Positions 1,278 to 15,647 of a stretch of 56,001 bases of DNA are shown here, in pieces. A program made the position numbers and the translations under genes. The stretch comes from a virus. Its lineage: Duplodnaviria > Caudoviricetes. The notes under the pieces were generated by a model that worked only from the letters and a program-made list of their open reading frames with translations, did no database searches and had not been told where the DNA came from. The stretch spans positions 1-56,001 of IMG/VR virus record IMGVR_UViG_3300043413_000021, one strand, 5' to 3'. Position 1 is the stretch's first letter. The number at the start of each line of letters is the position of its first letter.

Positions 1278-1825
1278 TAATCTTCTGTTTTTATTTCGTA
1301 AATGTTCGTTAGCATGGTAATGGTTTTTTCATCATTATCTTTTACCGCTTTGAAAAACTGTTCTAGTATCTTACTATCTGGTTTTGATTTTTTAGATTTT
1401 TTAGGCTCTATATTTGGGGTTATTTCTGCTTGACTTATCCCATCATTAAGCCCCCTACCAAAGTAAGTACCTATATCGGATGCTGCATTTTTTATGCATT
1501 CACTTTTTGCTGTTGCTAAGAAATGTTGGTTTGGAGAAATTGCAGAAATCTGAAAATTGCAAGCACCTACAAAAGACCTTCTTATCAAGACACCATTATC
1601 TTCTTTGTAGAAAATAACAAGCTCTATTGATGCCATTACAGATAATCCTGAATAGTTGTCCTTAAATACTTGGTATTGAAAATTACCCGTACTAAAATTA
1701 AACCAATCTAGCATTGATTCTAGTTCACCGATTGGGATATACCTAGCCTCACTACCTTCAATATTTCTTAGTGCGTAATTAGGTGGCTCTTGATTGATGA
1801 ATTTTAAAAATTCTGTTTTGTTCAT
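1277..1825 (-). CDS. Probable Rad52/Sak-like single-strand annealing protein
   Basis: YIPIGELESMLD and AKSECIKNAASDIGTYFGRGLN resemble phage Rad52-like annealases. Translationally coupled to the exonuclease. Confidence 0.6.
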   Translation of the reverse strand: MNKTEFLKFINQEPPNYALRNIEGSEARYIPIGELESMLDWFNFSTGNFQYQVFKDNYSGLSVMASIELVIFYKEDNGVLIRRSFVGACNFQISAISPNQHFLATAKSECIKNAASDIGTYFGRGLNDGISQAEITPNIEPKKSKKSKPDSKILEQFFKAVKDNDEKTITMLTNIYEIKTED

Positions 1826-2814
1826 TATTTGTATGATTTTTCTACATAAAATTTGATACCGTTAACTACTACTTCTTCATTATCCTTGAAAACACCCGCA
1901 TCCTTTAGGCTCATTGCTAACTTTTGAGCTTCCCTATGCTTTATTTCAATAGTTAATAGTTCTGGGCATTTTTTTATAGCTACCGAAGCATCAACTATTT
2001 CAAAAGATATTCTTTTTACGGTACTTACAGAAGGTAGTACTTCTTCCGCAACATCAACTTTAAATGAAATATCTGTTTCAAGTGCGCCTTGTTGTACGTT
2101 TACTTGATTTTGGAGTATTTCATTTTCAACTTGTTCTTTTTTTTGGGTTAGTTCATCAATTTTTGCTGCATTATTTTCGTTTTCTGCTTTTTTTATGCTA
2201 TTTTCTATGGTTTCCCTTTCCTTTATTTTATCTTTTTGCGCCTTTAATATTGGGATTAAAACAGAATCGTACTTTTCAATAGCTTCCAAATGAAATTCCA
2301 TGTATTTTGTCTTTCTACTATCGCTTTTTTCAAGGTTTATAACCCTTTCAACTGAAATTAATTGGGCATTTGTTTGGCATTGGGCTATTTGAGTGGAAAA
2401 TGAAAGTATATTGCTTTCTATACCTGATTTAATTGCATTAATTCTTTGCTTTTCTCTTTCTTTTTCTAATCTTCTTTGTTCAACTTGTTGGCAAAGGGCA
2501 TTGTACTTTGGTGTAATTTGGTTTAAAAGCCCATCATTTATAGTAAGAAATGATTTTTTTACATTATCCCATACCCTTGTGGCTTCCAAATAAGGTGCTT
2601 TCCCTTCTTTATGCTTTTCGTCTACTACTTTATTTGCTTGTTTTATCTTATTGATAAGGTCTGATATTATTGGTATATTTTCTTCTGTAAATTCAAGTGC
2701 ATTTATTTCGTCTTGAATTTTTTGAACCGATACGCCATGTTTTGTAAACTCAACATTAAATTGTGCTGTTACTACCGCCTGTGTGGGCAATTGTTGTAGG
2801 TTTTGTTCAGTCAT
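1825..2814 (-). CDS. Coiled-coil protein of the recombination operon (DUF1351/Gp157-like position)
   Basis: 329 aa, long heptad-rich helices, coupled upstream of the annealase and exonuclease. Confidence 0.5.
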   Translation of the reverse strand: MTEQNLQQLPTQAVVTAQFNVEFTKHGVSVQKIQDEINALEFTEENIPIISDLINKIKQANKVVDEKHKEGKAPYLEATRVWDNVKKSFLTINDGLLNQITPKYNALCQQVEQRRLEKEREKQRINAIKSGIESNILSFSTQIAQCQTNAQLISVERVINLEKSDSRKTKYMEFHLEAIEKYDSVLIPILKAQKDKIKERETIENSIKKAENENNAAKIDELTQKKEQVENEILQNQVNVQQGALETDISFKVDVAEEVLPSVSTVKRISFEIVDASVAIKKCPELLTIEIKHREAQKLAMSLKDAGVFKDNEEVVVNGIKFYVEKSYK

Positions 2815-4873: not shown

Positions 4874-5311
4874 ATGAAAGAGAAAATAAAAGGTATTGTA
4901 TTTGATTTTAAAAGTATTGGGTGGAGTTTTCAGCGAGTAGAAAAAGAACTAGGGTTTTCAAATGGAAGTATTGGCAAAGTTATTTTAGGTAAGTCTGGTA
5001 TATCTGAATTTAGATTTTTGCAGTTGGAAGAACTTTATAAAAAGCACTTCCCTGAAAAATTTACTATTAGTGAAGAAGTGAATAATTTGCCAGAAAATGA
5101 TGAAATTGAAAATATTGGTTTTAGAGCAGAACCCCCAAAAACGGAAATAATGAATAAGCAATGGTTTATTAATAATGCCCCAGATAGATACGAAGCACCA
5201 TATAAAATAGCAGACTTTAGAAAACTAATAAAAGAAAGCTATATCCTATCAAAAAAAGAATCCACCGAACTAATAGCAGCACTAGATAATGGACTTCTTT
5301 TTAAAGATTAA
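4874..5311 (+). CDS. XRE/Cro-like HTH DNA-binding protein (likely start MKEKI at 4874)
   Basis: WSFQRVEKELGFSNGSIGKVILGK fits an HTH_3-type pattern. Confidence 0.55.
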   Translation: MKEKIKGIVFDFKSIGWSFQRVEKELGFSNGSIGKVILGKSGISEFRFLQLEELYKKHFPEKFTISEEVNNLPENDEIENIGFRAEPPKTEIMNKQWFINNAPDRYEAPYKIADFRKLIKESYILSKKESTELIAALDNGLLFKD

Positions 5312-5389
5312 AATTACCTTAAAAATTCACATTATGTTGAAAACTACCAATAAAAATTATAATCTTTGCTTTGTTTATAAAACTAGATA

Positions 5390-5794
5390 ATGGCAGTATT
5401 AAATAAATTCAGTAATTCCATACTTGTTAATAAGTACAAGATTGCGAAGGAAACATTGGACTTGTTAGTGAATGAACTAAACAAGAGAGGCATACCAGTT
5501 GATAGTGTTAGTAATATCGTAGAAGTAAACCCTAGTGATGTATTTGCGTTACTGCCTGTTAAACGGCTAAGGAGTAGGGATAGAGATTATATGCAATCAC
5601 AGCACTTACTACGGTACATTCTATACCGTAGATGCAATATGACACTAAAAGAGATAGGCGTACAGACGGGTGGTTTTGACCATACAACTATAATAAATAG
5701 TATTAAGCGTGCGGGGCAGCTATTGGAAACAGACGATAGCTTTATATCTATGTACGAATCTGCTATCGATAAGCTAGGTAATCAAAAAAAATAA
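5390..5794 (+). CDS. Stand-alone DnaA C-terminal (domain IV) DNA-binding protein
   Basis: RSRDRDYMQSQHLLRYIL...MTLKEIGVQTGGFDHTTIINSIKR matches the DnaA domain IV signature (SLxEIG..FGGRDHTTV). Confidence 0.8.
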   Translation: MAVLNKFSNSILVNKYKIAKETLDLLVNELNKRGIPVDSVSNIVEVNPSDVFALLPVKRLRSRDRDYMQSQHLLRYILYRRCNMTLKEIGVQTGGFDHTTIINSIKRAGQLLETDDSFISMYESAIDKLGNQKK

Positions 5795-5831
5795 AAAAAT
5801 GAATCTAACAGGGGTCGCTAAAATGACCGAT

Positions 5832-5960
5832 AACGTCCCCGGCTTGCCGAAGTTGGTGAGTTCAAGGCTCAAATGCTCGGCAGCAAAATGTAAAAAAGAT
5901 GATTAGAAATATACAAACCATAGCGGATTCTACTGCACCAATTTTGGCAAACCCCATGTT
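5832..5960. repeat. attC-like hairpin A1
   Basis: AAC 5832; inner arms cttgccgaagttggtg / caccaattttggcaaa; GTT 5958. Confidence 0.8.
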
Positions 5961-6765
5961 GCCCGTTGGTGCGGTGAGTTTAAAACGCTTTATATCATTT
6001 AGCGGTGGCGTTGAAAGTACCACTATGTGTATTCTTTACGGTAAAGGTGCAACTGCTATATGGTGCGATACTGGTGCAGAACATGACGAAATGTACAAAA
6101 GAATTGATGATTGCGAAAAGGCATTAAAAGAAATTCATAAAGGCGATTTTGAATTGGTAAGATTAAAGGCTGATGTGAAAGTAAAAGGTAGTTGGGTTGA
6201 CAATTTAATTGATGCAATACTTGGATGGAAGTTTATGCCATCGCAGGGGCAAAGGTGGTGTACTGGTAAATTTAAAATCGCACCTATTGATAACTTTTTA
6301 AGTGAACAGGGCGAATGTGAGTTGCTTATTGGTTTGAACGCTGATGAAGAAACAAGGGAAGGGAATTGGGGATTAAAAGCCAATGTAAAATATGTTTATC
6401 AATTACAAGAAGATGGGCTTACCCGTGATGATTGTATTGAACTATTAAACCAATACGGGCTTAATCCTGACTTCCCGTTGTATATGAGCAGGGGTGGCTG
6501 CTTTATGTGTATTTACAAATCAATAGCAGAATATAAGGCTATGTACATTTTTGATAGAAAGACATTTGATAAAGTGTGGGCTATTGAGTTAAAAATACAA
6601 GACAAAAGGAAAAAATTATTTACCATATCTGTTAGCGGTAAGTCAATGACATGGATAGCGGCAGAGGTTGAAAGAGAGATACAAGGATGGGGTTTAGATT
6701 CGGTCAAAGGCTTTTACAAACAGATAGAACAAAAACAGGCTTGTGGTGCTTTCTGTCACAGGTAG
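5899..6765 (+). CDS. PAPS-reductase family (adenine-nucleotide alpha hydrolase) protein; cassette A1 cargo
   Basis: SFSGG PP-loop, DTGAE, RWCTGKFK, GLNADE and RGGCFMC motifs. Confidence 0.8.
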   Translation: MIRNIQTIADSTAPILANPMLPVGAVSLKRFISFSGGVESTTMCILYGKGATAIWCDTGAEHDEMYKRIDDCEKALKEIHKGDFELVRLKADVKVKGSWVDNLIDAILGWKFMPSQGQRWCTGKFKIAPIDNFLSEQGECELLIGLNADEETREGNWGLKANVKYVYQLQEDGLTRDDCIELLNQYGLNPDFPLYMSRGGCFMCIYKSIAEYKAMYIFDRKTFDKVWAIELKIQDKRKKLFTISVSGKSMTWIAAEVEREIQGWGLDSVKGFYKQIEQKQACGAFCHR

Positions 6766-6775
6766 CATGACGGGC

Positions 6776-6899
6776 AACGGTTTCGGGCTTTGCGAAGTGG
6801 CGGTTTTGAAAAATGTCAGCTTCAATATAGCACTGCTGTTCAATAGAATTACAAGGGTTCAAATTAGCACTTCACCCGCCATTTTGCAAAGCAAGTGTT
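6776..6899. repeat. attC-like hairpin A2
   Basis: AAC 6776; inner arms gctttgcgaagtggcgg / ccgccattttgcaaagc; GTT 6897. Confidence 0.8.
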
Positions 6900-6951
6900 A
6901 GCGGTTCGGGCTTCTCCGATTTTAGAAGTTCACAAATTAAATAACAAAAAA

Positions 6952-7449
6952 ATGTCAGAAACATTAACAGTAACTCGCCCGACTTGGAACGAAGAAATGC
7001 TAAAAGAACTTGCTCAAATCGTAGGTAAGCAAGTAAACGAATGGTGCAACGATGAAACACCGTTAGAAGATTGTATTGAAACAGCCGAAAAAGTGCTACA
7101 ATGGCACAGCAATGACAACGGATATGAACTTGCGAAAGAGTTTGATGATGAAGGTTTTTCACCCGATAGCGAACTGGTTGAAATTCTTGATAGTGTTTCT
7201 TATGATAGAAGTAAGGTTCAAGAAACATTTATTAAAAAATGGGTTGCTGATAATAACCTAAAACTTGAATTAGTTGAAGGTCAAAAAGTGATTGCAAAAC
7301 TTGTTCGTAAAGGCGAAGTTGAGGGTGAAATAGTAAAATTATATCCTGAAACTATGCAGTATGGTTTTTGGCACGAAGGTCAAGGATGCGAAAAAGGGGA
7401 AGGTCATACTTATGTCAATTTTGAAAACGTGGTGTCTGTCATAGCCTGA
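6952..7449 (+). CDS. Hypothetical acidic protein; cassette A2 cargo (ATG 6952, or GTG 6895 inside the attC arm)
   Basis: The ORF fills the cassette and has an A-rich leader before MSETL. Confidence 0.65.
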   Translation: MSETLTVTRPTWNEEMLKELAQIVGKQVNEWCNDETPLEDCIETAEKVLQWHSNDNGYELAKEFDDEGFSPDSELVEILDSVSYDRSKVQETFIKKWVADNNLKLELVEGQKVIAKLVRKGEVEGEIVKLYPETMQYGFWHEGQGCEKGEGHTYVNFENVVSVIA

Positions 7450-7454
7450 CCGAT

Positions 7455-7572
7455 AACGTTTTCGGGCTTGGTGAAGTAGCTAAACCCGAAGCTAAATAGA
7501 ATTACTAAGATTTAAAATTAAGAACGAATGATTGATATGATTACTAAACAGCCATTTTGCCAAACCAGTGTT
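7455..7572. repeat. attC-like hairpin A3
   Basis: AAC 7455; inner arms cttggtgaagtagct / agccattttgccaaa; GTT 7570. Confidence 0.75.
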
Positions 7573-7848
7573 AGTGGCAGTTATTATTTGGTTAGATATT
7601 GTGGTGGCTCGTATGATGACTATTATAGTGCTGTGGTTTTTGTTACCAATAAAAAATCAACTGCAACCAAATATTGCACTAAGTTTAATAAATTGCTTAA
7701 AAAATGGAAGAACCACTACAAGCAATTTGAAGCAGATAAATTTGGAATGAAATGGATTGCAGATGAACACATTGAAAAACACTTTGATAGGTGGAATAGT
7801 CTTGAAAATATAACCAAATGCTATTACGAAGAAGTGTCGTTTAGGTAA
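7528..7848 (+). CDS. Hypothetical protein; cassette A3 cargo (starts inside the hairpin loop)
   Basis: The ORF ends at the cassette's 3' arm. Confidence 0.6.
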   Translation: MIDMITKQPFCQTSVSGSYYLVRYCGGSYDDYYSAVVFVTNKKSTATKYCTKFNKLLKKWKNHYKQFEADKFGMKWIADEHIEKHFDRWNSLENITKCYYEEVSFR

Positions 7849-7856
7849 TTGCTACT

Positions 7857-7952
7857 AACGTTTTCGGGCTTGGTGTCTGTTATTTTGCCTTGCAGACACT
7901 TTAAGTTTACTACAAATTTAATAGGCAAAACAATAAGCACCAAACCGCTGTT
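7857..7952. repeat. attC-like hairpin A4 (close relative of B2)
   Basis: AAC 7857; inner arms cttggtgtctgttattttgcct / aggcaaaacaataagcaccaaa; GTT 7950. Confidence 0.85.
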
Positions 7953-7980
7953 AGTGGCTGGTGCGGTAAATTGAACTAAA

Positions 7981-8187
7981 ATGAGTAAAAAATTAAAAGC
8001 ATTAGCCTTAAGTTTTTTAGGCTGTATTATTTGGAGCGGACTTGTTTATATAGCAATAGCATTTTTGAAATCAGAATTAAACCCATTTATTTGGTCGCAA
8101 TTCACAAGAGGTGTAATGTTGTTTGTAATATCTTGCTATGTAGCATTTATTCCAGCAATAGTATTTGCTTTGAAAAACGAAATGTAG
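7981..8187 (+). CDS. Small two-TM membrane protein; cassette A4 cargo
   Basis: Two hydrophobic stretches in 68 aa. Confidence 0.6.
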   Translation: MSKKLKALALSFLGCIIWSGLVYIAIAFLKSELNPFIWSQFTRGVMLFVISCYVAFIPAIVFALKNEM

Positions 8188-8213
8188 CATCGCCACTAAC
8201 CGCACAAAAATAG

Positions 8214-8608
8214 ACACACACGATACAGATAGTTTTTCACAACTTAAAATAGTAACAATGGGAGTATTTTTTAAAGGGGGGCACATTAGCGGAAATTTCT
8301 GCAATATTACAAAAAGAAAACCTAAGGATTGGATTTATAATGGGTACAAAATAATTGTGCCTTACAAATTCAAGTGGAGGCATAAAATCGGTAAAGTTGA
8401 ATGCAATTGTAAAGTTTGCGAAGAACACTATCAGCCATGGTACGGCACAAGCTGGTTTCATTCTAAGGATTGCGCCCTGATGGAATACATTAATGCCCGC
8501 CCACAGATCTGTAACCTTGCGCAATATTACGAGAAAGATTTATCGCTAATCGCTCAAACTGACGAGTGTTAAGATTAACCACACACACGATACAGATAGT
8601 TTTTCACA
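8214..8608 (+). repeat. 28-bp perfect direct repeat (8214-8241 and 8581-8608) flanking ORF 8258-8572
   Basis: acacacacgatacagatagtttttcaca occurs twice. Confidence 0.9.
8258..8572 (+). CDS. Hypothetical Cys/His-rich protein (CNCKVC...H...C)
   Basis: ORF track; possible Zn-binding motif. Confidence 0.55.
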   Translation: MGVFFKGGHISGNFCNITKRKPKDWIYNGYKIIVPYKFKWRHKIGKVECNCKVCEEHYQPWYGTSWFHSKDCALMEYINARPQICNLAQYYEKDLSLIAQTDEC

Positions 8609-8798
8609 TTAATTCCATTTCAAGTTCATCTTGTGTAAGTGGGGTGCAATCTAACTTTATTATCATTTCATTTATGTTTAATAGTAAAGTACAATCGGGC
8701 ATTTTTTGTTGTTGTTTCGGTGGCAAATCTAGTTCATTACATAAACGTAAATATAATTGTTCATAGCTTTTTCTTCGGTTGTGTTTATTAGTTGTCAT
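8604..8798 (-). CDS. Hypothetical protein
   Basis: ATG with an A-rich leader; divergent from 8868. Confidence 0.4.
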   Translation of the reverse strand: MTTNKHNRRKSYEQLYLRLCNELDLPPKQQQKMPDCTLLLNINEMIIKLDCTPLTQDELEMELM

Positions 8799-8867
8799 AT
8801 TTTGTAATTAATGTTGCTAAAATAATTATTTTTAATCGGATTAAATTTATAATTAAAAGTTAAAAAA

Positions 8868-9059
8868 ATGATACAAAAAGTAGTTAAAAAAATTTGTGTA
8901 AACTTTGCGGAGTACATTGTAGTGAATGGATGGTCAGTAACGGATGGGTTTAAATGGATAAGACTATCCCATATACAAGATGCTCCAATAACTACTGAAG
9001 AACTTTTTGAACTTTTTAACAAAGAAGAAAGAAAAAGAATAAAAAAAGAAGTACCTTAG
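8868..9059 (+). CDS. Hypothetical protein
   Basis: ATG after an A-rich leader. Confidence 0.5.
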   Translation: MIQKVVKKICVNFAEYIVVNGWSVTDGFKWIRLSHIQDAPITTEELFELFNKEERKRIKKEVP

Positions 9060-9215
9060 CACTATATTAGTTTTCTGAATGAAGGGAGTCTTTCAGAGAA
9101 TTTAATGGTTGTATCAACCAGCCCCTCTTTGTCAACTCCCGATAAATTGGGGCATTTTTTTATAATAAAACAAAATTTAATTTAATAAAAAAATATTTGT
9201 TTTAAATAATTTAAT

Positions 9216-9223
9216 TAAGTTTG
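9216..9223 (+). promoter_or_regulatory. Bacteroidota promoter TAAGTTTG (with upstream TTTG at 9196)
   Basis: Consensus match about 20 bp upstream of the HTH gene. Confidence 0.55.
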
Positions 9224-9243
9224 TAATCCATAAAAATAAAAAT

Positions 9244-9444
9244 ATGAGTAAGATAAAAAAAGTAGATAATCTAAGACAGATTATTGATGAAGCTTTAGAT
9301 GGTAGAACTTATAAATGGTTGTGTGAAAAAACTGGCATCCATTCCACCCAAATGTCGTATATAGTTAATGGATTAAAGCCTAGTAAGAATAATCTATCTA
9401 AAATAGTTAAAGTATTAAAATTAGACCCTTCCTTGTTGGAATAG
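9244..9444 (+). CDS. Cro/XRE-family HTH regulator
   Basis: 66 aa; RTYKWLCEKTGIHSTQMSYIVNGLKPS is a typical HTH_3 pattern. Confidence 0.75.
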   Translation: MSKIKKVDNLRQIIDEALDGRTYKWLCEKTGIHSTQMSYIVNGLKPSKNNLSKIVKVLKLDPSLLE

Positions 9445-9458
9445 AGGTCTTTTTTTTT
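9423..9458 (+). terminator. Terminator-like hairpin after the HTH gene
   Basis: agacc...ggtct followed by a T-tract. Confidence 0.4.
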
Positions 9459-9824
9459 CTAAATAGGGTTCGTTATCAATTCCTACCCCGCTTTAGTTTT
9501 CAGATTTAAAAAGCAAATAGTTGAATTTTGTTACATATCCATATATATAAATCAAAAAGTGTTGGCAATGTTGTCCCCTTATAACCAACGACCTAAAAGA
9601 TTTAATAAAAAACCAGATTTTAATACTCGTTAGGATAGGCGAAGGAAAGGATAAGGTAGCAATGAAAAAGGGCATCTGAATTAACAAACACCCTTTTTAC
9701 CCCTAAAAGATAAGTAGATTACTACTTTGATAAAAAACATTATATCAAAGATAAGGAATAAACATAATCTTTTAGGGATAGAAAGGGGGTATTGTGTATA
9801 AAATAACAAAAAATAACAAAAAAA

Positions 9825-10160
9825 ATGGCAAAAAAATTAAAAAAAACTCCCGAATTGCCTTTTAAAAGTGAAAATTTTGAAATAATATGGAAAGAATATA
9901 TTACTCATAGGAGAGAGAAAGGAGCATCAAACTATACTCCAACTGGCTTAAATAGGGTGTTTAACGCTCTAATTAGGGATAGTTTAAATTCAGAAGAAGT
10001 TGCTATAAAAATAATAGAGCAGTCATTGGAAAAAAATTGGACAGGACTTTTCCCACTTAAAAATAATATAAAACATGGACAAACAACCACAACTTATTGG
10101 CAGCGTATTGGAATCGGAGGGATTAATATTGAAGGGAGTGCAAAAGAATCTCCGTTATAG
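9825..10160 (+). CDS. Replication-initiator-like protein (C-terminal-type domain only)
   Basis: FEIIWKEYITHRREKG..YTPTG...IIEQSLEKNWTGLFPLK resembles the C-terminus of phage replisome organisers; lies directly upstream of the DnaC-like ATPase. Confidence 0.5.
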   Translation: MAKKLKKTPELPFKSENFEIIWKEYITHRREKGASNYTPTGLNRVFNALIRDSLNSEEVAIKIIEQSLEKNWTGLFPLKNNIKHGQTTTTYWQRIGIGGINIEGSAKESPL

Positions 10161-10944
10161 TGAATGGGATTGGGTTGAGCTTACGGAAGATGAAAAAATA
10201 GATGCACTAGGGTATAGGCGTATGCTTAAGGGTACAGACCTTAAAAAAAGGCAAAAGGAAGAATACAATAGGCTTAAAATAGCGAAGCTTCAATCTCAAT
10301 GGACTTATGATGAATTAAGGGCTGAAATACTAAGTAGGGCTTTATCTGAACCATTTGAATTTGTAATAGATGAACATAATGAAAGGATAATACACCTTCT
10401 TTGTCTTTACTTTTCGGGGGATGAAAGGTTTAATAGTGAAAAAATAACATACCATAATGGGGAAGAAAGAAGCCTAAATTTAAGTAAGGGTATTGGTCTA
10501 ATATCTTCAAAAAAGGGTACTGGGAAGTCAATTTTAATGAAGTTATTTCAGCAAAACAAAAGAAGCCCATATCTAAAAATAGACACTAAGGATATTGCAT
10601 CCGAGTATAAAAAGAAAGGGGATGCTTGTATTGAAACATACTCAAACTTACTTTATATCCCACCTAATCCAACATTTTTTTGTTTCCAAAAAATAGGCAT
10701 TTGCTTTGACGAATTGGGGTATGAACTACCTAAAAATAACTGGGGAGATAAGTCCGATGTAATGGCAGATGTTCTATTTAATGTGTATAAGCAAAATCAA
10801 TATAGCGGGGATTATAGCAACTTTCATTTTACAAGTAACCTTTCAGGTCAAGACTTTGAAGGAAGATACGGGGATAGAATAAAAGATAGAATGAGAGAAA
10901 TGTTTAATGTTATTATTGTTTCAGGCGATAGTAGAAGAAAGTAA
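10075..10944 (+). CDS. DnaC/IstB-like P-loop ATPase (helicase-loader-like)
   Basis: Walker A KGTGKS, Walker B ICFDELG, FTSNL and YGDRIKDRMREMFN. Confidence 0.75.
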   Translation: MDKQPQLIGSVLESEGLILKGVQKNLRYSEWDWVELTEDEKIDALGYRRMLKGTDLKKRQKEEYNRLKIAKLQSQWTYDELRAEILSRALSEPFEFVIDEHNERIIHLLCLYFSGDERFNSEKITYHNGEERSLNLSKGIGLISSKKGTGKSILMKLFQQNKRSPYLKIDTKDIASEYKKKGDACIETYSNLLYIPPNPTFFCFQKIGICFDELGYELPKNNWGDKSDVMADVLFNVYKQNQYSGDYSNFHFTSNLSGQDFEGRYGDRIKDRMREMFNVIIVSGDSRRK

Positions 10945-10955
10945 AATAAAATAAA

Positions 10956-11141
10956 ATGAAAAACGAATATAAAGTAGGAACTAAAAAATGTACTAGGTGC
11001 AAGAAAAATGTAGATGTTAATAGGTTCTACAAAAAAATAAGTTCATCTGATGGGCTAAGTTACCATTGTTTTGATTGTGAAAAAATAATGAAAAAAGAAA
11101 GAAGAATAAAAATGATGGAGGGTATAATAATAGCTTTTTAA
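10956..11141 (+). CDS. Small zinc-ribbon protein
   Basis: CTRC...F...DGL..HCFDC. Confidence 0.55.
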   Translation: MKNEYKVGTKKCTRCKKNVDVNRFYKKISSSDGLSYHCFDCEKIMKKERRIKMMEGIIIAF

Positions 11142-11191
11142 GGTAATTTTAATTTAGTATTTCAGAAAATATATTAAACTTTGCAATACTT

Positions 11192-11452
11192 ATGTTTGGT
11201 TTCAAAAAAGCAAAAAATATGAATTTAAGGGAACAGTTAGAAAAATTCATTTCATTATTTGGGTATAAAAGATGTTTCATGTGGGATGATATGATTACTT
11301 ATAAAATAGTTCATAGTTTATCAAAAGAAGTAATAAGGCAAGCAGAAGAAATAATACAAGATTACAATTTATATTTACTTGAAGTTCAAGTATTGGAAGG
11401 TAGTTCCGTTTTTTCTGAAATGCTAATTATTAGACAAAAAATATCTTACTAA
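11192..11452 (+). CDS. Hypothetical protein
   Basis: ORF track; lies in an operon. Confidence 0.5.
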   Translation: MFGFKKAKNMNLREQLEKFISLFGYKRCFMWDDMITYKIVHSLSKEVIRQAEEIIQDYNLYLLEVQVLEGSSVFSEMLIIRQKISY

Positions 11453-11454
11453 AA

Positions 11455-11964
11455 ATGTACAATAGCACTATAATATCCAAAAAAAAGAAACTTTTATGTG
11501 GTTGTTTTGATTACAATTTCAGTAAGGGAAGGTGTAAGATGCACGCTACAATAGAAAGCGCAAATAAAAGAATCGAAAAGCAAAAACAAATATCAACGGT
11601 TACCGTAAAAACGAAAGTTCAAGATACTGAACCAAAAGAAATGCAGCAATTTTGGGAGTATGCCAAAAAAGTTATAGAACAAAAACCTTATTGTTGGGAG
11701 TGTGGAGATTTTATTTCTCCAAAAGATTATAGGGCTTCCACTGCCCACATATTTCCCAAATCAATATTTCCTTCAATAGCATCCAATAAATATAATTTCC
11801 TAGTACTTGGTAATAGATGCGGATGCCATAACCAAAGCCATAGATTAGATACATTTAGTAAAATGAGAATATTTCCCACCGCAATAAATAGATTTATGAA
11901 ATTCGCAGAAGAAATAAAAGAAAACCACAAATACAAAAATACTTTTATTGAATTATTAAAATGA
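11455..11964 (+). CDS. NinG/HNH-like endonuclease
   Basis: CWECG...AHIFPKS...N...CGCHN beta-beta-alpha-Me pattern. Confidence 0.6.
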   Translation: MYNSTIISKKKKLLCGCFDYNFSKGRCKMHATIESANKRIEKQKQISTVTVKTKVQDTEPKEMQQFWEYAKKVIEQKPYCWECGDFISPKDYRASTAHIFPKSIFPSIASNKYNFLVLGNRCGCHNQSHRLDTFSKMRIFPTAINRFMKFAEEIKENHKYKNTFIELLK

Positions 11965-12050
11965 AAAAAATCAAATAACGTAAAGATCGGAATGGCACAA
12001 AACCCCATGTTACCTTCTGCCTTATTTGGTCGGACACAAACAAAAATAAT

Positions 12051-12803
12051 ATGGCTAAAAAGTCAAACATACAATGGACGGATGCAACTTGGAATATCGC
12101 CAGAGGTTGCACAAAAGTAGATGAAGATTGCAAATTCTGTTATATGTATAGGGATAGTTTTGATAATACAAGGTATAACCCTTTGCAAGTAACAAAGACA
12201 AAAACAGTTTTCAATTTGCCTTTGAAAATTAAAGAACCTTCAAAGATTTTCACTTCATCATTAACCGATGTATTTCACCCCGATTGCGATGCTTTCAGAA
12301 ATGAAATGTGGGATATTATTCGTAAATGCCCACAGCATACTTTTCAGCTACTTACAAAAAGACCTGAAAGAATTATAGATAATACTCCATCTGATTTATT
12401 ACAAGCTGATAACATTTGGTTTGGAACAAGTGTAGGAAGTGAAAAAGGCAAACAAAGAATTTACGATTTATTGAAAGTTGATTGCAAAACTCGTTTTATT
12501 TCCTTTGAACCTTTACACGAAAGAGTAGATATGAATTTGGATTTACTCGACTTGCTTAAAATTCATTGGGCAATTATTGGTGGTGAAAGTGGCAATGAAA
12601 CTGGTAAATATCGTTACAGACCTTGTAAGGTTGAATGGATGGAGGAACTTGTAAAAGACCTTACTGCAACCACAGCAATATTTGTCAAACAGATGGGAAC
12701 TCATTTAGCAAAGGAGTTAAATATGTCTGATAGGCACGGTGGCAACATTGATGAATTTCCGTCCACCTTGAAAATCAGGGAGTTTCCCAAAGGTAGCAGG
12801 TAA
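12051..12803 (+). CDS. DUF5131 (phage Gp37/Gp68) radical-SAM-like protein; cassette B1 cargo
   Basis: IQWTDATWN, GCTKVDEDCKFCY, SLTDVFH, FQLLTKRPER, SFEPL, IIGGESG and FVKQMG. Confidence 0.9.
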   Translation: MAKKSNIQWTDATWNIARGCTKVDEDCKFCYMYRDSFDNTRYNPLQVTKTKTVFNLPLKIKEPSKIFTSSLTDVFHPDCDAFRNEMWDIIRKCPQHTFQLLTKRPERIIDNTPSDLLQADNIWFGTSVGSEKGKQRIYDLLKVDCKTRFISFEPLHERVDMNLDLLDLLKIHWAIIGGESGNETGKYRYRPCKVEWMEELVKDLTATTAIFVKQMGTHLAKELNMSDRHGGNIDEFPSTLKIREFPKGSR

Positions 12804-12896
12804 CGGTTTGCGGCTTGGTGTCTGTTATTTTGCCTTGCAGACATTTCAAGCCTTAGATAAAATTTATAGGCAAAATAATAGCACCAAACCGCTGTT
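12802..12896. repeat. attC-like hairpin B2 (close relative of A4)
   Basis: Inner arms cttggtgtctgttattttgcct / aggcaaaataatagcaccaaa. Confidence 0.85.
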
Positions 12897-12924
12897 AGTG
12901 GCTGGTGCGGTAAATTAAACGAAA

Positions 12925-13194
12925 ATGACAAACGAAGAACAAATTAAAGAGCCTAAAGATGATTGGAAATTAAAATCACTTACGATTGAATTTAAAAAGG
13001 GATTTTCATTTGAAAACTCACAAGACAGATACGAGGGAAGTATTAAGTTTGAAAATGGAGAGAGTGAAAGTTTCCAATTCAAAGTAAGACCCGATATGGC
13101 TGATGACTATATTAAACTGATAAGCGAAGATATTGTTAAGTGTGCCGAATCTTTAGGCTCTCGATTGATAGAGTCTTTAGGATTACGGAAGTAG
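12925..13194 (+). CDS. Hypothetical protein; cassette B2 cargo
   Basis: The ORF fills the cassette from leader to 3' arm. Confidence 0.65.
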   Translation: MTNEEQIKEPKDDWKLKSLTIEFKKGFSFENSQDRYEGSIKFENGESESFQFKVRPDMADDYIKLISEDIVKCAESLGSRLIESLGLRK

Positions 13195-13205
13195 CACTTG
13201 CCACT

Positions 13206-13324
13206 AACGGTAGCGGTTTATGCAGGTGGGAATTGATGCACTTCCATTCGCAAACAACCGATGCCGAATAGAATTAATTAGTTGAGCATTTAGCGTCCAG
13301 CCCACTTGAATAAACCGCCTTGTT
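13206..13324. repeat. attC-like hairpin B3
   Basis: Inner arms gcggtttatgcaggtggg / cccacttgaataaaccgc. Confidence 0.8.
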
Positions 13325-13351
13325 GGCTGCTGTACGGTAAAAAATGCCAAG

Positions 13352-13389
13352 TTCTACTTTTTGTCAGTAGTTAATCAAGTTAAACAACC
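13352..13389 (+). repeat. 38-bp leader element, copy 1 (35/38 identical to 15254-15291)
   Basis: ttctactttttgtcagtagttaatcaagttaaacaacc. Confidence 0.8.
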
Positions 13390-13418
13390 GTCATTTTTAA
13401 ACTGTCAAACAATAATTT

Positions 13419-13655
13419 ATGAATATACAACCGAAAGAAAAAGCGCAAGATTTATGGCTAACTTATTACGAGTTATTGCCAGATGGAATATACTCAAATG
13501 AAGCTGCTAAAATTGAGGCTAAAAAGTTTGCTACAATAGCTGTCAATGAAGTTTTGGAAGCTACTAAAGAAGCTGTGTTACCTATGGGCGGTGCTACTGG
13601 TTATGATTATGATAGCTACTGGTTAGATGTCAAGTCTGAAATTGAAAAGCTGTAG
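13419..13655 (+). CDS. Hypothetical protein; cassette B3 cargo
   Basis: PKEKAQDL...A.IAVNEVL...YWLDVKSEIEKL; the ORF ends at the 3' arm. Confidence 0.65.
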   Translation: MNIQPKEKAQDLWLTYYELLPDGIYSNEAAKIEAKKFATIAVNEVLEATKEAVLPMGGATGYDYDSYWLDVKSEIEKL

Positions 13656-13665
13656 TATAGCAGCC

Positions 13666-13743
13666 AACGGATTGGGTATTTACGCAGGTGGCTTTTGTGG
13701 GTTGGCTTGTGTGTCGGCAAGCCACTTGAGTAAATACCTTGTT
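13666..13743. repeat. attC-like hairpin B4
   Basis: Inner arms ggtatttacgcaggtggctt / aagccacttgagtaaatacc. Confidence 0.8.
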
Positions 13744-13788
13744 AGCCGTTCGTTCTTTTTCGATTACAATTTAAAAAAAATTAGTAAA

Positions 13789-14208
13789 ATGTCAAAAAAT
13801 ATAGATTTATTAAAGCAAAAATTAAATGCAAAAACTTCGGAAGAGTTGTTTGGTATTACAGAGCAACCTCCACAACAATGTCCAAACATTGATAATGTCA
13901 TTCGTGATTTAGAAGGCACTTGTAAGCAAATTCAAAGTATAGCAAATGATATAAAACGAACTGATAATATAGACGATATTCCAAGTTTAGCTGGCGATAT
14001 TGATTGGTATTCAAGTGATATTGATAAGTCAAAAGAGTTAAATGAGTTGAGAAAGCAAATTGAGTTAGTTCGTGGTTGGGGAGAAGAATGGAAAAATTTA
14101 GCAAAATCTTTATTCAATAATATGAGTAAAGAGCAAGATATAGTACACCATTTTTCAAGTGAGTTTCAAATTAAATATGACGAGTTATGCGGTGTCGTTT
14201 TAGAATGA
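13789..14208 (+). CDS. Hypothetical helical protein; cassette B4 cargo (likely start MSKNI at 13789)
   Basis: The track ORF starting at 13627 runs through the hairpin. The ATG at 13789 has an A-rich leader. Confidence 0.6.
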   Translation: MSKNIDLLKQKLNAKTSEELFGITEQPPQQCPNIDNVIRDLEGTCKQIQSIANDIKRTDNIDDIPSLAGDIDWYSSDIDKSKELNELRKQIELVRGWGEEWKNLAKSLFNNMSKEQDIVHHFSSEFQIKYDELCGVVLE

Positions 14209-14213
14209 CGGCT

Positions 14214-14339
14214 AACGTCCAGCGGCTTTGCGAAGGCAAGGGATTAGAAGCACTAAACTTTAAAATTAGTACAAATGATTGATAGAAATACAAATGTTCA
14301 AATAATCGGTGAAGCCCTTGCTTTTGCAAAACCGATGTT
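14214..14339. repeat. attC-like hairpin B5
   Basis: Inner arms ctttgcgaaggcaaggg / cccttgcttttgcaaaa. Confidence 0.8.
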
Positions 14340-14556
14340 AGCAGCCGTTTATGTTGCTACTTGGCAAGAAGAAGGTGATGAACCATATCAGATACGGTCA
14401 GACGAATGTAAACCAAAAGATAAAGCAGGTGATTCTGATTGGTGGTTTGATGAAGAAAGTCTAATGTTTAGAAGATATTGGTCGTACCACCATGAAGAAT
14501 ATGGAAATCAATATGTTCATGATGAAGTTGATGCAGTCTTATTAAATGGCTGCTAA
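14275..14556 (+). CDS. Hypothetical acidic protein; cassette B5 cargo (starts inside the hairpin loop)
   Basis: The stop TAA is the TAAC of the 3' arm. Confidence 0.6.
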   Translation: MIDRNTNVQIIGEALAFAKPMLAAVYVATWQEEGDEPYQIRSDECKPKDKAGDSDWWFDEESLMFRRYWSYHHEEYGNQYVHDEVDAVLLNGC

Positions 14557-14574
14557 CACTTAGATTGACGAAAT

Positions 14575-14830
14575 ATGGATATGCAATACATTGAAAAAGA
14601 GAAAGATAACTATCTACTAAAATTGAATGGGGAAGATTATTTTTTCTCAAAATTATCACTATACAAATCAACACGTTTTCTACCTATAAAACCAATTTTG
14701 AACAATGGATCTTTGTCTTGGAATATTGGTAGTGAACTACCCACCCACAGCAAAGCTGATGAGTGGGCTTTCGCTCCCTCTATGTAAAAAAATATCTTAC
14801 AAACAAATTAAAAATTTAATACTAAAATGA
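14575..14830 (+). pseudogene. Small gene interrupted by a 52-bp insertion
   Basis: Removing 14732-14783 restores ...WNIGSKKISYKQIKNLILK* with its TGA overlapping the ssb ATG (ATGA). Confidence 0.55.
14732..14783 (+). mobile_element. Miniature IS200/IS605-type end-hairpin remnant
   Basis: gtgaactacccacccacagcaaagctgatgagtgggctttcgctccctctat; GC-rich palindrome beginning GTGAACTACCC. Confidence 0.55.
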
Positions 14831-15252
14831 TAAAAACAGAAGTAATAGGTCATTTAGGAAATGATGCAGTAGTAAATAACGTTAACGGTAAAAGTGTAGT
14901 TAACTTTTCGGTAGCCCATACAGAAAAATATAAAGATTCAAATGGAGTGGAAACAACAAACACTATTTGGGTTTCATGTTCTTATTGGGCTGAAAGAATA
15001 GGTGTAGCAACTTATCTTAAAAGGGGTACACAAGTTTATGTTGAGGGGCAACCTTCGTTAAAAACATACGTGGATAATCAAAATAAAACACAAGCTCAAC
15101 TAAGCTTAAGAGTAAGAAACATACAATTACTTGGAGGGGCAAAACAAGAGCAGGTACAACCACAGCAAAATAATTATCCATCCAATCCACAAGATGTATT
15201 AACCGATAAACAAAAAGAGTTTTTAGAGCAAAAAGATGATTTGCCTTTTTAA
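14827..15252 (+). CDS. ssb: Single-stranded DNA-binding protein
   Basis: IGHLGNDA, FSVA, YLKRGTQVYVEG and the C-terminal DDLPF tail. Confidence 0.95.
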   Translation: MIKTEVIGHLGNDAVVNNVNGKSVVNFSVAHTEKYKDSNGVETTNTIWVSCSYWAERIGVATYLKRGTQVYVEGQPSLKTYVDNQNKTQAQLSLRVRNIQLLGGAKQEQVQPQQNNYPSNPQDVLTDKQKEFLEQKDDLPF

Positions 15253-15253
15253 A

Positions 15254-15291
15254 TTCTACTTTTTGTGGGTAGTTAATCAAGTCAAACAACC
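15254..15291 (+). repeat. 38-bp leader element, copy 2
   Basis: ttctactttttgtgggtagttaatcaagtcaaacaacc. Confidence 0.8.
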
Positions 15292-15323
15292 CTCAACCTT
15301 TTTTTAAAACAAAAAAAATAAAA

Positions 15324-15647
15324 ATGGCTAAACTATCTAAACCTGTAAATGATTGGGCTAGGTGCTTAATTATATTACATAGTAATTACATGGCTGGGGT
15401 ATCTATGGCAAAAGTGCTTAATGTACTCCCACATTTTTACAAGTTTCAAACAAGACTAAAGGAGGTTGAAAAAGCCCACCCTAAACTAAAAATATCAAGA
15501 ACTATAATACCTTTTAAAAATGCTAAATTAAATAAAAACGGTTACTTTACACAATACACACTACTAAGCCCACCATCATACGTTATTAACCTTTACAATA
15601 AAATAAATAAAGAGGGACTTTATGGAGAAAAAAAAGATAAAAAATGA
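15324..15647 (+). CDS. Hypothetical basic protein
   Basis: ORF track; A-rich leader. Confidence 0.55.
   Translation: MAKLSKPVNDWARCLIILHSNYMAGVSMAKVLNVLPHFYKFQTRLKEVEKAHPKLKISRTIIPFKNAKLNKNGYFTQYTLLSPPSYVINLYNKINKEGLYGEKKDKK

Follow-up and report, generated by a model that had tools for sequence, protein, structure and literature searches.

The 56,001 bases of IMG/VR record IMGVR_UViG_3300043413_000021, called the window here, make up the whole of a virus record that is rated about 80% complete, and their source is a freshwater Bacteroidota-type phage. Our subject is two rows of small genes on the + strand of this window, at 5.8-8.2 kb and 12.0-14.6 kb, and in particular the hairpins that lie between these genes. 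We refer to the rows as array A (5832-8200, genes A1-A4 and hairpins H0-H3) and array B (11977-14557, genes B1-B5 and hairpins HB1-HB4). There are eight full, imperfect hairpins of 78-129 nt, which start with ..YAACG and end with TGTTR.., and a preliminary description of this DNA had proposed that three of them double as the translation start and the N-terminal coding sequence of a gene. The explanation we favor, at a probability of roughly 75%, is that the arrays consist of integron-type cassettes in which the hairpin comes before its gene and the loop of the hairpin can act as a start region. The features of the two arrays are as follows, with protein lengths in amino acids (aa).

5832-5960, + strand: H0, attC-like hairpin before A1, with ..GATAAC at the left (AAC 5832-5834) and GTTGCCC at the right (5958-5964); ATG 5899 is in the loop
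5899-6765, + strand: A1, PAPS-reductase-like, 288 aa given the loop ATG as start; its match to Pfam PF01507 begins at residue 31 and that to phrog_424 at residue 29
6776-6899, + strand: H1, hairpin before A2; its loop is without a usable start, and A2 has its own A-rich leader
6952-7449, + strand: A2, 165 aa; leader-type start, 53 nt past the GTT
7455-7572, + strand: H2, hairpin before A3, of the commonest hairpin family; AAC 7455-7457, GTT 7570-7572, ATG 7528 in the loop
7528-7848, + strand: A3, 106 aa; residues 1-18 come from the loop and the right arm (...CQTSV/SGS)
7857-7952, + strand: H3, hairpin before A4; nearly identical to HB1, also in the leader as far as the ATG (repeat families D2 and D5)
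7981-8187, + strand: A4, 68 aa; leader-type start
8192-8200, + strand: 3' end of array A; a half site GCCACTAAC that no hairpin follows and that is complementary to the GTTAGTGGC in H3
11977-12015, + strand: degenerate short site before B1, AACG...ATGTTACCT; its GTT flank is complementary in 10/12 positions to the flank before AAC 12802
12051-12803, + strand: B1, DUF5131, 250 aa; leader-type start, with the TAA of a TAAC as its stop
12802-12896, + strand: HB1, hairpin before B2, placed by folding and the anchor scan
12925-13194, + strand: B2, 89 aa; leader-type start
13206-13324, + strand: HB2, hairpin before B3, placed by folding and the anchor scan
13419-13655, + strand: B3, 78 aa, phrog_21441; leader-type start
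13666-13743, + strand: HB3, short-loop hairpin before B4, placed by folding and the anchor scan
13789-14208, + strand: B4, 139 aa; leader-type start
14214-14339, + strand: HB4, hairpin before B5; AAC 14214-14216, GTT 14337-14339, ATG 14275 in the loop, right arm ending in ATGTTAGC
14275-14556, + strand: B5, 93 aa; residues 1-22 come from the loop and the arm
14549-14573, + strand: end of array B, a half site GCTGCTAAC at 14549-14557 followed by the array-end motif (T at +8, C at +12, G at +13)

The stems of H0 and H2 are weaker than the others and both sites were placed by eye and folding; in H2 the stem is weakened in the window copy. The site before B1, at about 35 nt, has no clear stem and may be a collapsed hairpin.

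The start codons of A1, A3 and B5 each lie between the AAC and GTT boxes of a hairpin, as had been described, and in the predicted folds all three are found in an open, A-rich loop. The right arms are open as coding sequence, giving ...ILANPM/LPVG in A1, ...PFCQTSV/SGS in A3 and ...AFAKPM/LAAV in B5, and the loops of A3 and B5 have a motif in common (TTTAAAATTA-n6/n5-AATGATTGATA, repeat family D13). At the other end of the genes, TAAC does supply the TAA stop of B1 (12801-12803) and B5 (14554-14556), while the remaining seven stops are 5-13 nt before the next AAC. The stops are therefore at a hairpin arm, although this is not the 3' arm that the preliminary description had named but the left (..AAC) arm of the hairpin that follows.

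Most of the counts given below come from a viral set of 119 IMG/VR loci plus the window (1.08 Mb), which was gathered with an exact 18-mer of the left arm of H2/H3. This 18-mer is present in at least 119 viral (IMG/VR) contigs and in at least 120 bacterial contigs, the latter nearly all Bacteroidota, and 199 hairpins were found in the bacterial contigs that hold it. The cultured Flavobacterium phages of Muminvirus carry the same hairpins. Hairpins were located by a scan for AACG...TGTT anchors with paired arms under a threshold of folding energy (dG), with a minimum anchor spacing of 45 nt in the viral set. At dG <= -18 the scan returns 314 sites against 2 in reversed-sequence controls (1.08 Mb), and at dG <= -16 it returns 373, including six of the eight full window hairpins (H0 and H2 are missed). 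Sequence-only nhmmer profiles of the arms found the main hairpin family only and missed most of the window sites. In these hairpins an asymmetric 6x2 internal loop adjoins the AAC/GTT box. When there is an open reading frame (ORF) upstream of the hairpin, its stop is the TAA of TAAC in 84/312 cases and is within 15 nt of the AAC in 224/312. A second size class of about 57 nt (AACGG...stem...TGTT) occurs mixed with the sites of about 124 nt, for example in locus L244 (575-14288) and in the Polaribacter phage P12002L (L121, 29990-30060).

Each gene is bracketed by GTTnnnnnn...nnnnnnAAC, and the two brackets of a gene match each other. When the 12 bases from the GTT before a gene are compared with the last 12 up to and including the AAC behind it, 9-11 positions are complementary in all nine window cassettes (9/12 for the GTT flank of H0 and the flank before AAC 6776), whereas the two flanks of one and the same window hairpin match less (6-9/12). 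In the viral set the 7 nt past TGTT are the perfect complement of the 7 nt before the next AAC in 120/251 neighboring pairs, and agree in at least 6 of 7 positions in 177/251. The latter level is reached in 15/251 comparisons with the hairpin's own flank and in 16/251 with a control pairing. The flank pairs also co-vary within gene families, as in GTTATGTGCA...TGCACATAAC against GTTATGGTTA...TAACCATAAC. Complementary cassette ends are the known signature of passage through a circle that is closed inside the AAC/GTT box.

To which gene a hairpin belongs becomes apparent when loci that share one gene and differ in the DNA next to it are compared. Locus pairs with the same upstream gene and different downstream DNA have the hairpin interior in common in 0/43 cases, while pairs with the same downstream gene and different upstream DNA have it in common in 94/162. 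With the upstream gene in common, homology stops 4-8 nt past the A of AAC in 22/35 pairs; the other 13 breaks lie in the conserved left arm, where they are not resolvable, except for one that is 4 nt upstream of the AAC. With the downstream gene in common, homology spans the whole hairpin in 50/78 pairs. Contigs of two other freshwater runs (X2 and X5) share exactly 12794-13208 with the window while both flanks differ, and this block is HB1 and B2 up to the C of the next AAC. Since homology breaks just past the 5' AACG, the hairpin travels with the downstream gene. The usual mobile unit thus begins with the C of an AAC and finishes with the AA of the AAC that follows, that is C-hairpin-GTT-flank-(optional leader)-gene-complementary flank-AA, and the array ends, with a full hairpin at the 5' side and a half site at the 3' side, fit such a unit. 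A crossover at the 3' GTT, with the hairpin owned by the upstream gene, was considered and is ruled out by the homology breaks and the array ends. The crossover is found inside one outer box only, with a minority of exchanges at or near the other box. It had been suggested earlier that the site supplies an A-rich initiation region to captured ORFs. The A-rich region stands, with 56% A in the 20 nt before loop ATGs, but the site is not a fixed dock for captured ORFs, as the hairpin moves with the downstream gene.

The repeated stem-loops of T4-type phages known as PeSLs (PMC2839356, PMC4122927) also sit between small accessory genes, carry expression signals and are associated with gene shuffling, and in the accessible text of those papers this is ascribed to homologous recombination between the regulatory motifs. 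The hairpins described here could likewise be regulatory stem-loops, of the promoter/terminator type, whose genes are exchanged by homology between the repeats. The arms are in fact highly conserved across phages, and the window has no recombinase yet encodes a YqaJ-type exonuclease. Additionally, in the 28/78 pairs with a common downstream gene in which homology does not span the whole hairpin, the break is in or at the right arm (26 inside the conserved right arm or hairpin interior, 2 no more than 4 nt from TGTT). Hairpin and gene are thus not linked in every case, which counts against our explanation as well. However, homologous exchange does not account for the end-complementarity (177/251 against 16/251) and the co-varying flanks, which fit a crossover at the AAC/GTT box, nor for the clustering of the breaks directly past AACG. 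The borders found here are precise and the cassette ends complementary, and the same site family adjoins IntI-like or Xer-type recombinases in other genomes. A related Polaribacter phage site has even been recombined by IntI1, according to the part of that study available (PMC9892861). We consider shuffling by homology to be a very improbable account of these arrays.

The DNA past the terminal half site differs from random sequence. In a set of 40 unique array ends with no hairpin behind them (loci L003, L005, L011, L014, L049 and others), and with positions counted from the AAC, there is a T at +8 in 35/40, a C at +12 in 26/40 and a G at +13 in 30/40, as in ATTGACGCAAT and ATATACGCAAC. Because the viral scan misses some of the sites of about 57 nt, a few of the apparent array ends really precede short hairpins. 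The end of array B (14558-14573) fits the motif, and the end of array A (8201 onward) does not. The motif may be a docking (attI-like) site.

The hairpins also have a preferred strand. In 287/351 unique hairpins the AACG..TGTT strand is the more stable one, a count that is biased by the sites having been picked on the sense strand, and when the sites are picked by antisense energy instead it is still the better one in 308/376 (p = 2e-43). Because it folds better, this strand corresponds to the classical recombined 'bottom' strand. In the viral intervals the genes are on the AACG..TGTT strand in 169 cases, on the opposite strand in 2 and not assignable in 72. The phage cassette genes are written on the better-folding strand, and so the hairpin precedes its own gene. 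The intervals of bacterial arrays have 16 genes on this strand, 47 on the opposite one and 31 not assignable, which means that bacterial arrays of the same site family have the classical order of the ORF and then the attC. The AA/C crossover point described here is, seen in the sense of the bacterial genes, the classical G/TT at the far end of the attC that follows the ORF.

These orientations also bear on the idea that the hairpins and the complementary gene ends have a role in RNA alone, for example as stems for the processing or stability of each cistron, and that the cassette pattern is a by-product. In its favor, the better-folding strand of the phages is the transcribed one, and G.U-compatible pairs are frequent in the folds. 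The bacterial arrays, however, fold better antisense to their genes (47 against 16), and this indicates that one DNA strand keeps the ability to fold, irrespective of which way the genes are transcribed. Presence/absence blocks that end precisely at the AAC also weigh against the idea, and an Rfam search of 5000-15500 gave no match at E <= 0.1. A role confined to RNA therefore seems to us to have hardly any likelihood.

The recombinases encoded next to arrays of this family point to the kind of enzyme that could be involved. In Flavobacterium silvisoli a 12-hairpin array follows the genes for a 580-aa protein and a Drt-like reverse transcriptase, and the half site at the end of this array is some 50 nt away from the recombinase gene. 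For the C-terminal half of the 580-aa protein the best-matching model is TIGR02249 'integron integrase', with a score of 221.7 bits where the cut-off is 265. This recombinase (L243, 5302-8674) has about 300 extra N-terminal residues, and the first cassette of the array is the Drt-like reverse transcriptase, whose best match is NF041749 Drt4 at 114 bits, below its cut-off. A Saprospiraceae genome has 15 hairpins 1 kb from a fragment of a similar recombinase gene. Among the viral loci, 3/119 encode an Xer-type recombinase that is kin of the bacterial ones, and in L014 its gene (1596-2480) is directly past the array end. The array-linked recombinases score 221.7, 167.6 and 133 bits against the cut-off of 265, match TIGR02249 in two pieces and are Xer-like. 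Given these scores below the integron-integrase cut-off and the two-piece match, we do not file the system as a classical integron. An Xer-type tyrosine recombinase would be the enzyme that cuts the sites, judging by these neighboring genes.

The second part of our explanation concerns the loop. The cassette set used for it consists of 308 hairpins, each with an open frame of 60 or more codons behind it. In 197/308 the loop contains an ATG that can be read across the right arm, and in 120/308 this reading frame continues into the long gene as an in-frame fusion; by family, 55 of 203 are wholly fused and 5 more are mixed. The fusions use all three frames (60, 47 and 13 cases). The lengths of the loop ORFs that cross the arm are bimodal, in that 93 stop within 30 aa past the arm, 2 stop at 30-60 and 121 run for 60 or more. 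Unrelated proteins have arm-encoded N-termini in common, as had been predicted, with FCQTRV found on 5 families, FFAKPV on 4, HFAKPV on 3 and NFAKPV on 3. An example of a leader peptide expected from a loop start is MIDMITKQPFCQTSVSGS...

An alternative that has to be taken more seriously than the previous two is that the loop starts are an artefact of ORF calling. The real starts would then be in or past the arm (ATG 5956 or GTG 5974 in A1, ATG 14335 in B5 and TTG 7588 in A3), and the open frame back to the loop ATG would be due to chance or to the merging of a short upstream ORF with the gene. There are reasons to suspect this, since two of the three frames through the conserved arm are free of stops and the 93 short loop ORFs of other cassettes are only short upstream ORFs. 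A test is offered by the genes whose frame is open across the arm but which lack an ATG between +2 and +60. Of these, 37/37, 33/35 and 6/6 in the three frames have an open loop ATG in frame with the gene (76/78 overall; by family 23/23, 22/24 and 5/5), and the two exceptions in the 33/35 frame resemble false hairpins inside genes. As a baseline, in cassettes with a leader of their own, 24, 25 and 17 of 137 unique hairpins contain such a loop ATG, or about 12-18% per frame. A start in or after the arm would leave nothing to keep these frames open, and thus the open frames speak for the loop start. Furthermore, the first in-frame ATG past the arm is more than 90 nt away in 66/120 fused genes compared to 16/188 unfused ones.

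The properties of the candidate codons point the same way. The 20 nt upstream of ordinary leader ATGs contain 52% A, close to the value for loop ATGs given above, and the background is 33%. The probability of being unpaired is 0.64 for the surroundings of the loop ATG but 0.10 for those of the NTG codon in the arm, and the loop ATG is the more open of the two in 116/116 cases. This arm NTG is thus paired in the stem, and it is CTG in 6/47 fusions of that frame. An enrichment of ATG at the arm codon of fused genes was looked for and was not seen (6/47 against 19/188). Bacteroidota start translation on open, A-rich leaders rather than at Shine-Dalgarno sites.

A large methyltransferase family provides a comparison between fused and unfused genes. 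The unfused members start 8-12 residues before a DC/NES motif. In the fused members this motif is 6-17 residues past the arm, and most of them have no start codon between the arm and the motif. In the GenBank record of Flavobacterium phage mumin6-1 the methyltransferase gp006 starts at the loop ATG, which is the choice of a gene caller only; the N-terminus expected from this loop start is MIDRITEQPFCQTRVSGS...

The three window genes differ in how clearly they can be assigned a loop start. For each of A1, A3 and B5 the similarity to homologues sets in only past the GTT arm, a point that the preliminary description had proposed to check. In the case of A3, 29/98 relatives start 0-5 residues before the core YYLVRY, and 53/98 carry 17-27 extra residues of hairpin type that end in ..V(S/M)(G/T)S. 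The ..VSGS form, which is that of the window, offers neither an ATG nor a GTG in frame from the arm up to the core, and the sole other candidate, TTG 7588, sits inside the core, where no relative starts. From these alignments the loop start of A3 is well supported. For B5, two short relatives (P0007 and P0008) start at the core and six long ones carry varied hairpin-type leaders, and its start is probably also in the loop.

Each of the three cases has a codon that favors the artefact and weighs against the loop start. Many of the long A3 relatives read ..VMTS, in which the ATG directly past the GTT could be the true start. In B5 the ATGTTAGC at the end of the right arm of HB4 puts ATG 14335 in frame with the gene, and there is a Met at this position in 4/6 long relatives; in the other 2/6 the codon is for Val or Leu, and it is buried in the stem. 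The strongest difficulty is with A1, where 84/120 listed relatives start with MKRFISFSGG and 20/120, including the window's own protein, have 20-34 extra residues. The gene has two other in-frame starts, ATG 5956 inside the right arm and GTG 5974, and the latter is two codons before the core at which the 84 relatives start. With these two codons at hand a loop start is not needed in A1, and we can only say that it possibly has one, as the case is ambiguous. Taking the family-wide counts together with these genes, the artefact remains an unlikely explanation of the loop starts as a whole.

Other points that lower our confidence in hairpin-first cassettes with loop starts concern the data and the model. 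No tyrosine recombinase was found in the window by a PF00589 search of this approximately 80% complete record. The database proteins with which the starts were compared are products of gene callers, which are biased to long ORFs, and no RNA runs holding the stretch are listed. The hairpin scan is heuristic and demands both AACG and TGTT anchors, at the cost of H0 and H2. The viral set, gathered by one 18-mer, holds related contigs, a bias which the counts by family lessen but do not abolish. Finally, one upstream gene end precedes three different AAC flanks, each with a different hairpin, which a simple crossover model does not predict. In other runs this gene end, ...CTCAAGGCATAG, is followed by CAGGTAAC and an HB1-type hairpin, by CAGCCAAC and an HB3-type hairpin, or by CCGCTAAC and an HB1-like hairpin (compare 12794-12812 and 13657 in the window). 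In these cases the flank before the AAC seems to be tied to the hairpin, unlike the general rule of a break after AACG. The gene end CTCAAGGCATAG was looked for in the studied loci and was not found there.

The leader of HB4 type, MIDRN.NVQI..EALAFAKPML, is of interest because it is found on three different bodies. These are B5 itself, P0009, which has the 22-residue leader of the window on an unrelated methyltransferase-like body, and P0150, which is an A1 homologue. The likeness among these proteins stops at ..KPML, which is the GTT box. Together with the minority of breaks near TGTT, this suggests a rare exchange at the other (GTT) box. Recombination of the less favored strand, which is reported to recombine less often in the text available of PMC9892861, could be the route of such exchanges.

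Under the explanation that we prefer, that of hairpin-first cassettes, the phage genome would hold two arrays (4 + 5 genes) of integron-type cassettes with a Bacteroidota family of attC-like hairpins. As the hairpin precedes the gene, its loop is able to carry the start region, and the variable loop could hold the A-rich region and the ATG of the gene with no need of a Shine-Dalgarno sequence. Ribosomes would start at the loop ATG in about four of ten phage cassettes, beginning in the open loop and reading the right arm and the GTT box into the body of the protein, which would add a leader of 15-25 residues. Rare exchanges on the GTT side may re-pair leaders with new bodies. A bolder version, to which we would give slightly less than even chances, is that phages run these cassettes 'backwards', with the loop as a portable start module, free of Shine-Dalgarno sequences, that brings its 15-25-residue leader along, and with GTT exchanges that re-pair leaders with bodies in any of the three frames. 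On this reading the recombination site would be a device for making and expressing new cassettes. The arrangement could also couple the translation of a cassette to the folding needed for recombination.

Several parts of this picture have precedents. Like classical integrons, the arrays have imperfect palindromes with outer ..AAC/GTT.. boxes, a crossover in one box, complementary ends and one strand that folds better, and the bacterial arrays of this family adjoin a tyrosine recombinase and end in a half site. Unlike in classical integrons, where the ORF lies upstream of its own attC, the site in the phage arrays precedes the gene (169 against 2). The window has neither a recombinase nor a promoter platform, while a complete integron has an adjacent intI, an attI and a promoter. 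From the PeSLs discussed above the arrays are set apart by precise AAC/GTT borders, end-complementarity and a linked tyrosine recombinase.

The closest precedent is that of phage attC clusters without an integrase (CALINs), which have already been reported by Qi, Rajabal, Ghaly, Tetu & Gillings 2023 (PMC9892861). As far as the accessible text of that paper goes, these too are rows of attC-type hairpins separated by small genes, which often encode DNA methyltransferases, and they are found in phages that are virulent and have no integrase; the window agrees with them in having at least two attC-type sites within a few kb and no PF00589 match. One of the sites of Polaribacter phage P12002L, P12002L_attC2, is the one that was recombined by IntI1. 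In this phage the methyltransferase genes are separated by short AACG...TGTT hairpins, which by eye show the same end-complementarity (GTTAGGCAC...GTGCCTAAC); no site was detected there by a scan using AAC/GTT anchors at dG <= -17, the hairpins being short. In that accessible text the P12002L sites are only said to have 'divergent directions' and the hairpin is not assigned to the downstream gene; starts in the loop or coding through the arm are not described, and 'start codon' occurs 0 times in the main text.

A built-in start region is known from the ORF-11/ORF-18 of attI1 and from short ORFs in attC sites, which in the accessible part of PMC8876359 act by translational coupling; the short attC ORFs are proposed there to melt the stem for downstream translation. 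These share with the loop starts a frame across the crossover point and a stop from the cassette core (TAG in GTTRRRY), and our 93 short loop ORFs resemble the short attC ORFs of that account. In contrast to the short peptides described there, the frame here runs into the full protein, so that the site encodes the protein's own N-terminus, and unlike the attI1 platform the start region travels with the cassette. In the literature, with supplements and subscription journals outside the scope, we found no description of proteins that begin inside attC loops, and a paper on cultured Flavobacterium phages that bear these hairpins mentions neither hairpins nor integrons.

The surroundings of the arrays offer a few further observations. 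An ORF at 8258-8572, immediately behind array A, lies between the two copies of a perfect direct repeat of 28 nt (ACACACACGATACAGATAGTTTTTCACA, 8214-8241 and 8581-8608, repeat family D16), which may be an insertion of a different kind. Upstream of array A are the gene for the YqaJ-type exonuclease (564-1277, - strand) and one for a small protein with the C-terminal helix-turn-helix of DnaA (5390-5794, + strand). A 329-aa ORF at 1825-2814 (- strand) has no match in Pfam, PHROG or NCBIfam. Relatives of the gene upstream of array A were searched for in viral contigs and none was confirmed, and a megablast of 5300-15300 against phage records gave no match.

If the explanation given here is true, leaders encoded by a recombination site would be found on hundreds of phage proteins, including many anti-restriction methyltransferases. 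Such leaders would make unrelated proteins seem related at their N-termini and make the real starts hard to call. A start codon in the loop of a stable hairpin is also a natural test case for translation in Bacteroidota, and as cultured Muminvirus phages carry the same hairpins the idea is open to testing at the bench. More generally, a large attC family in which the phage cassettes are inverted and the 5' end of the gene overlaps with the site would bear on how cassettes arise and on how cassettes without promoters get expressed.

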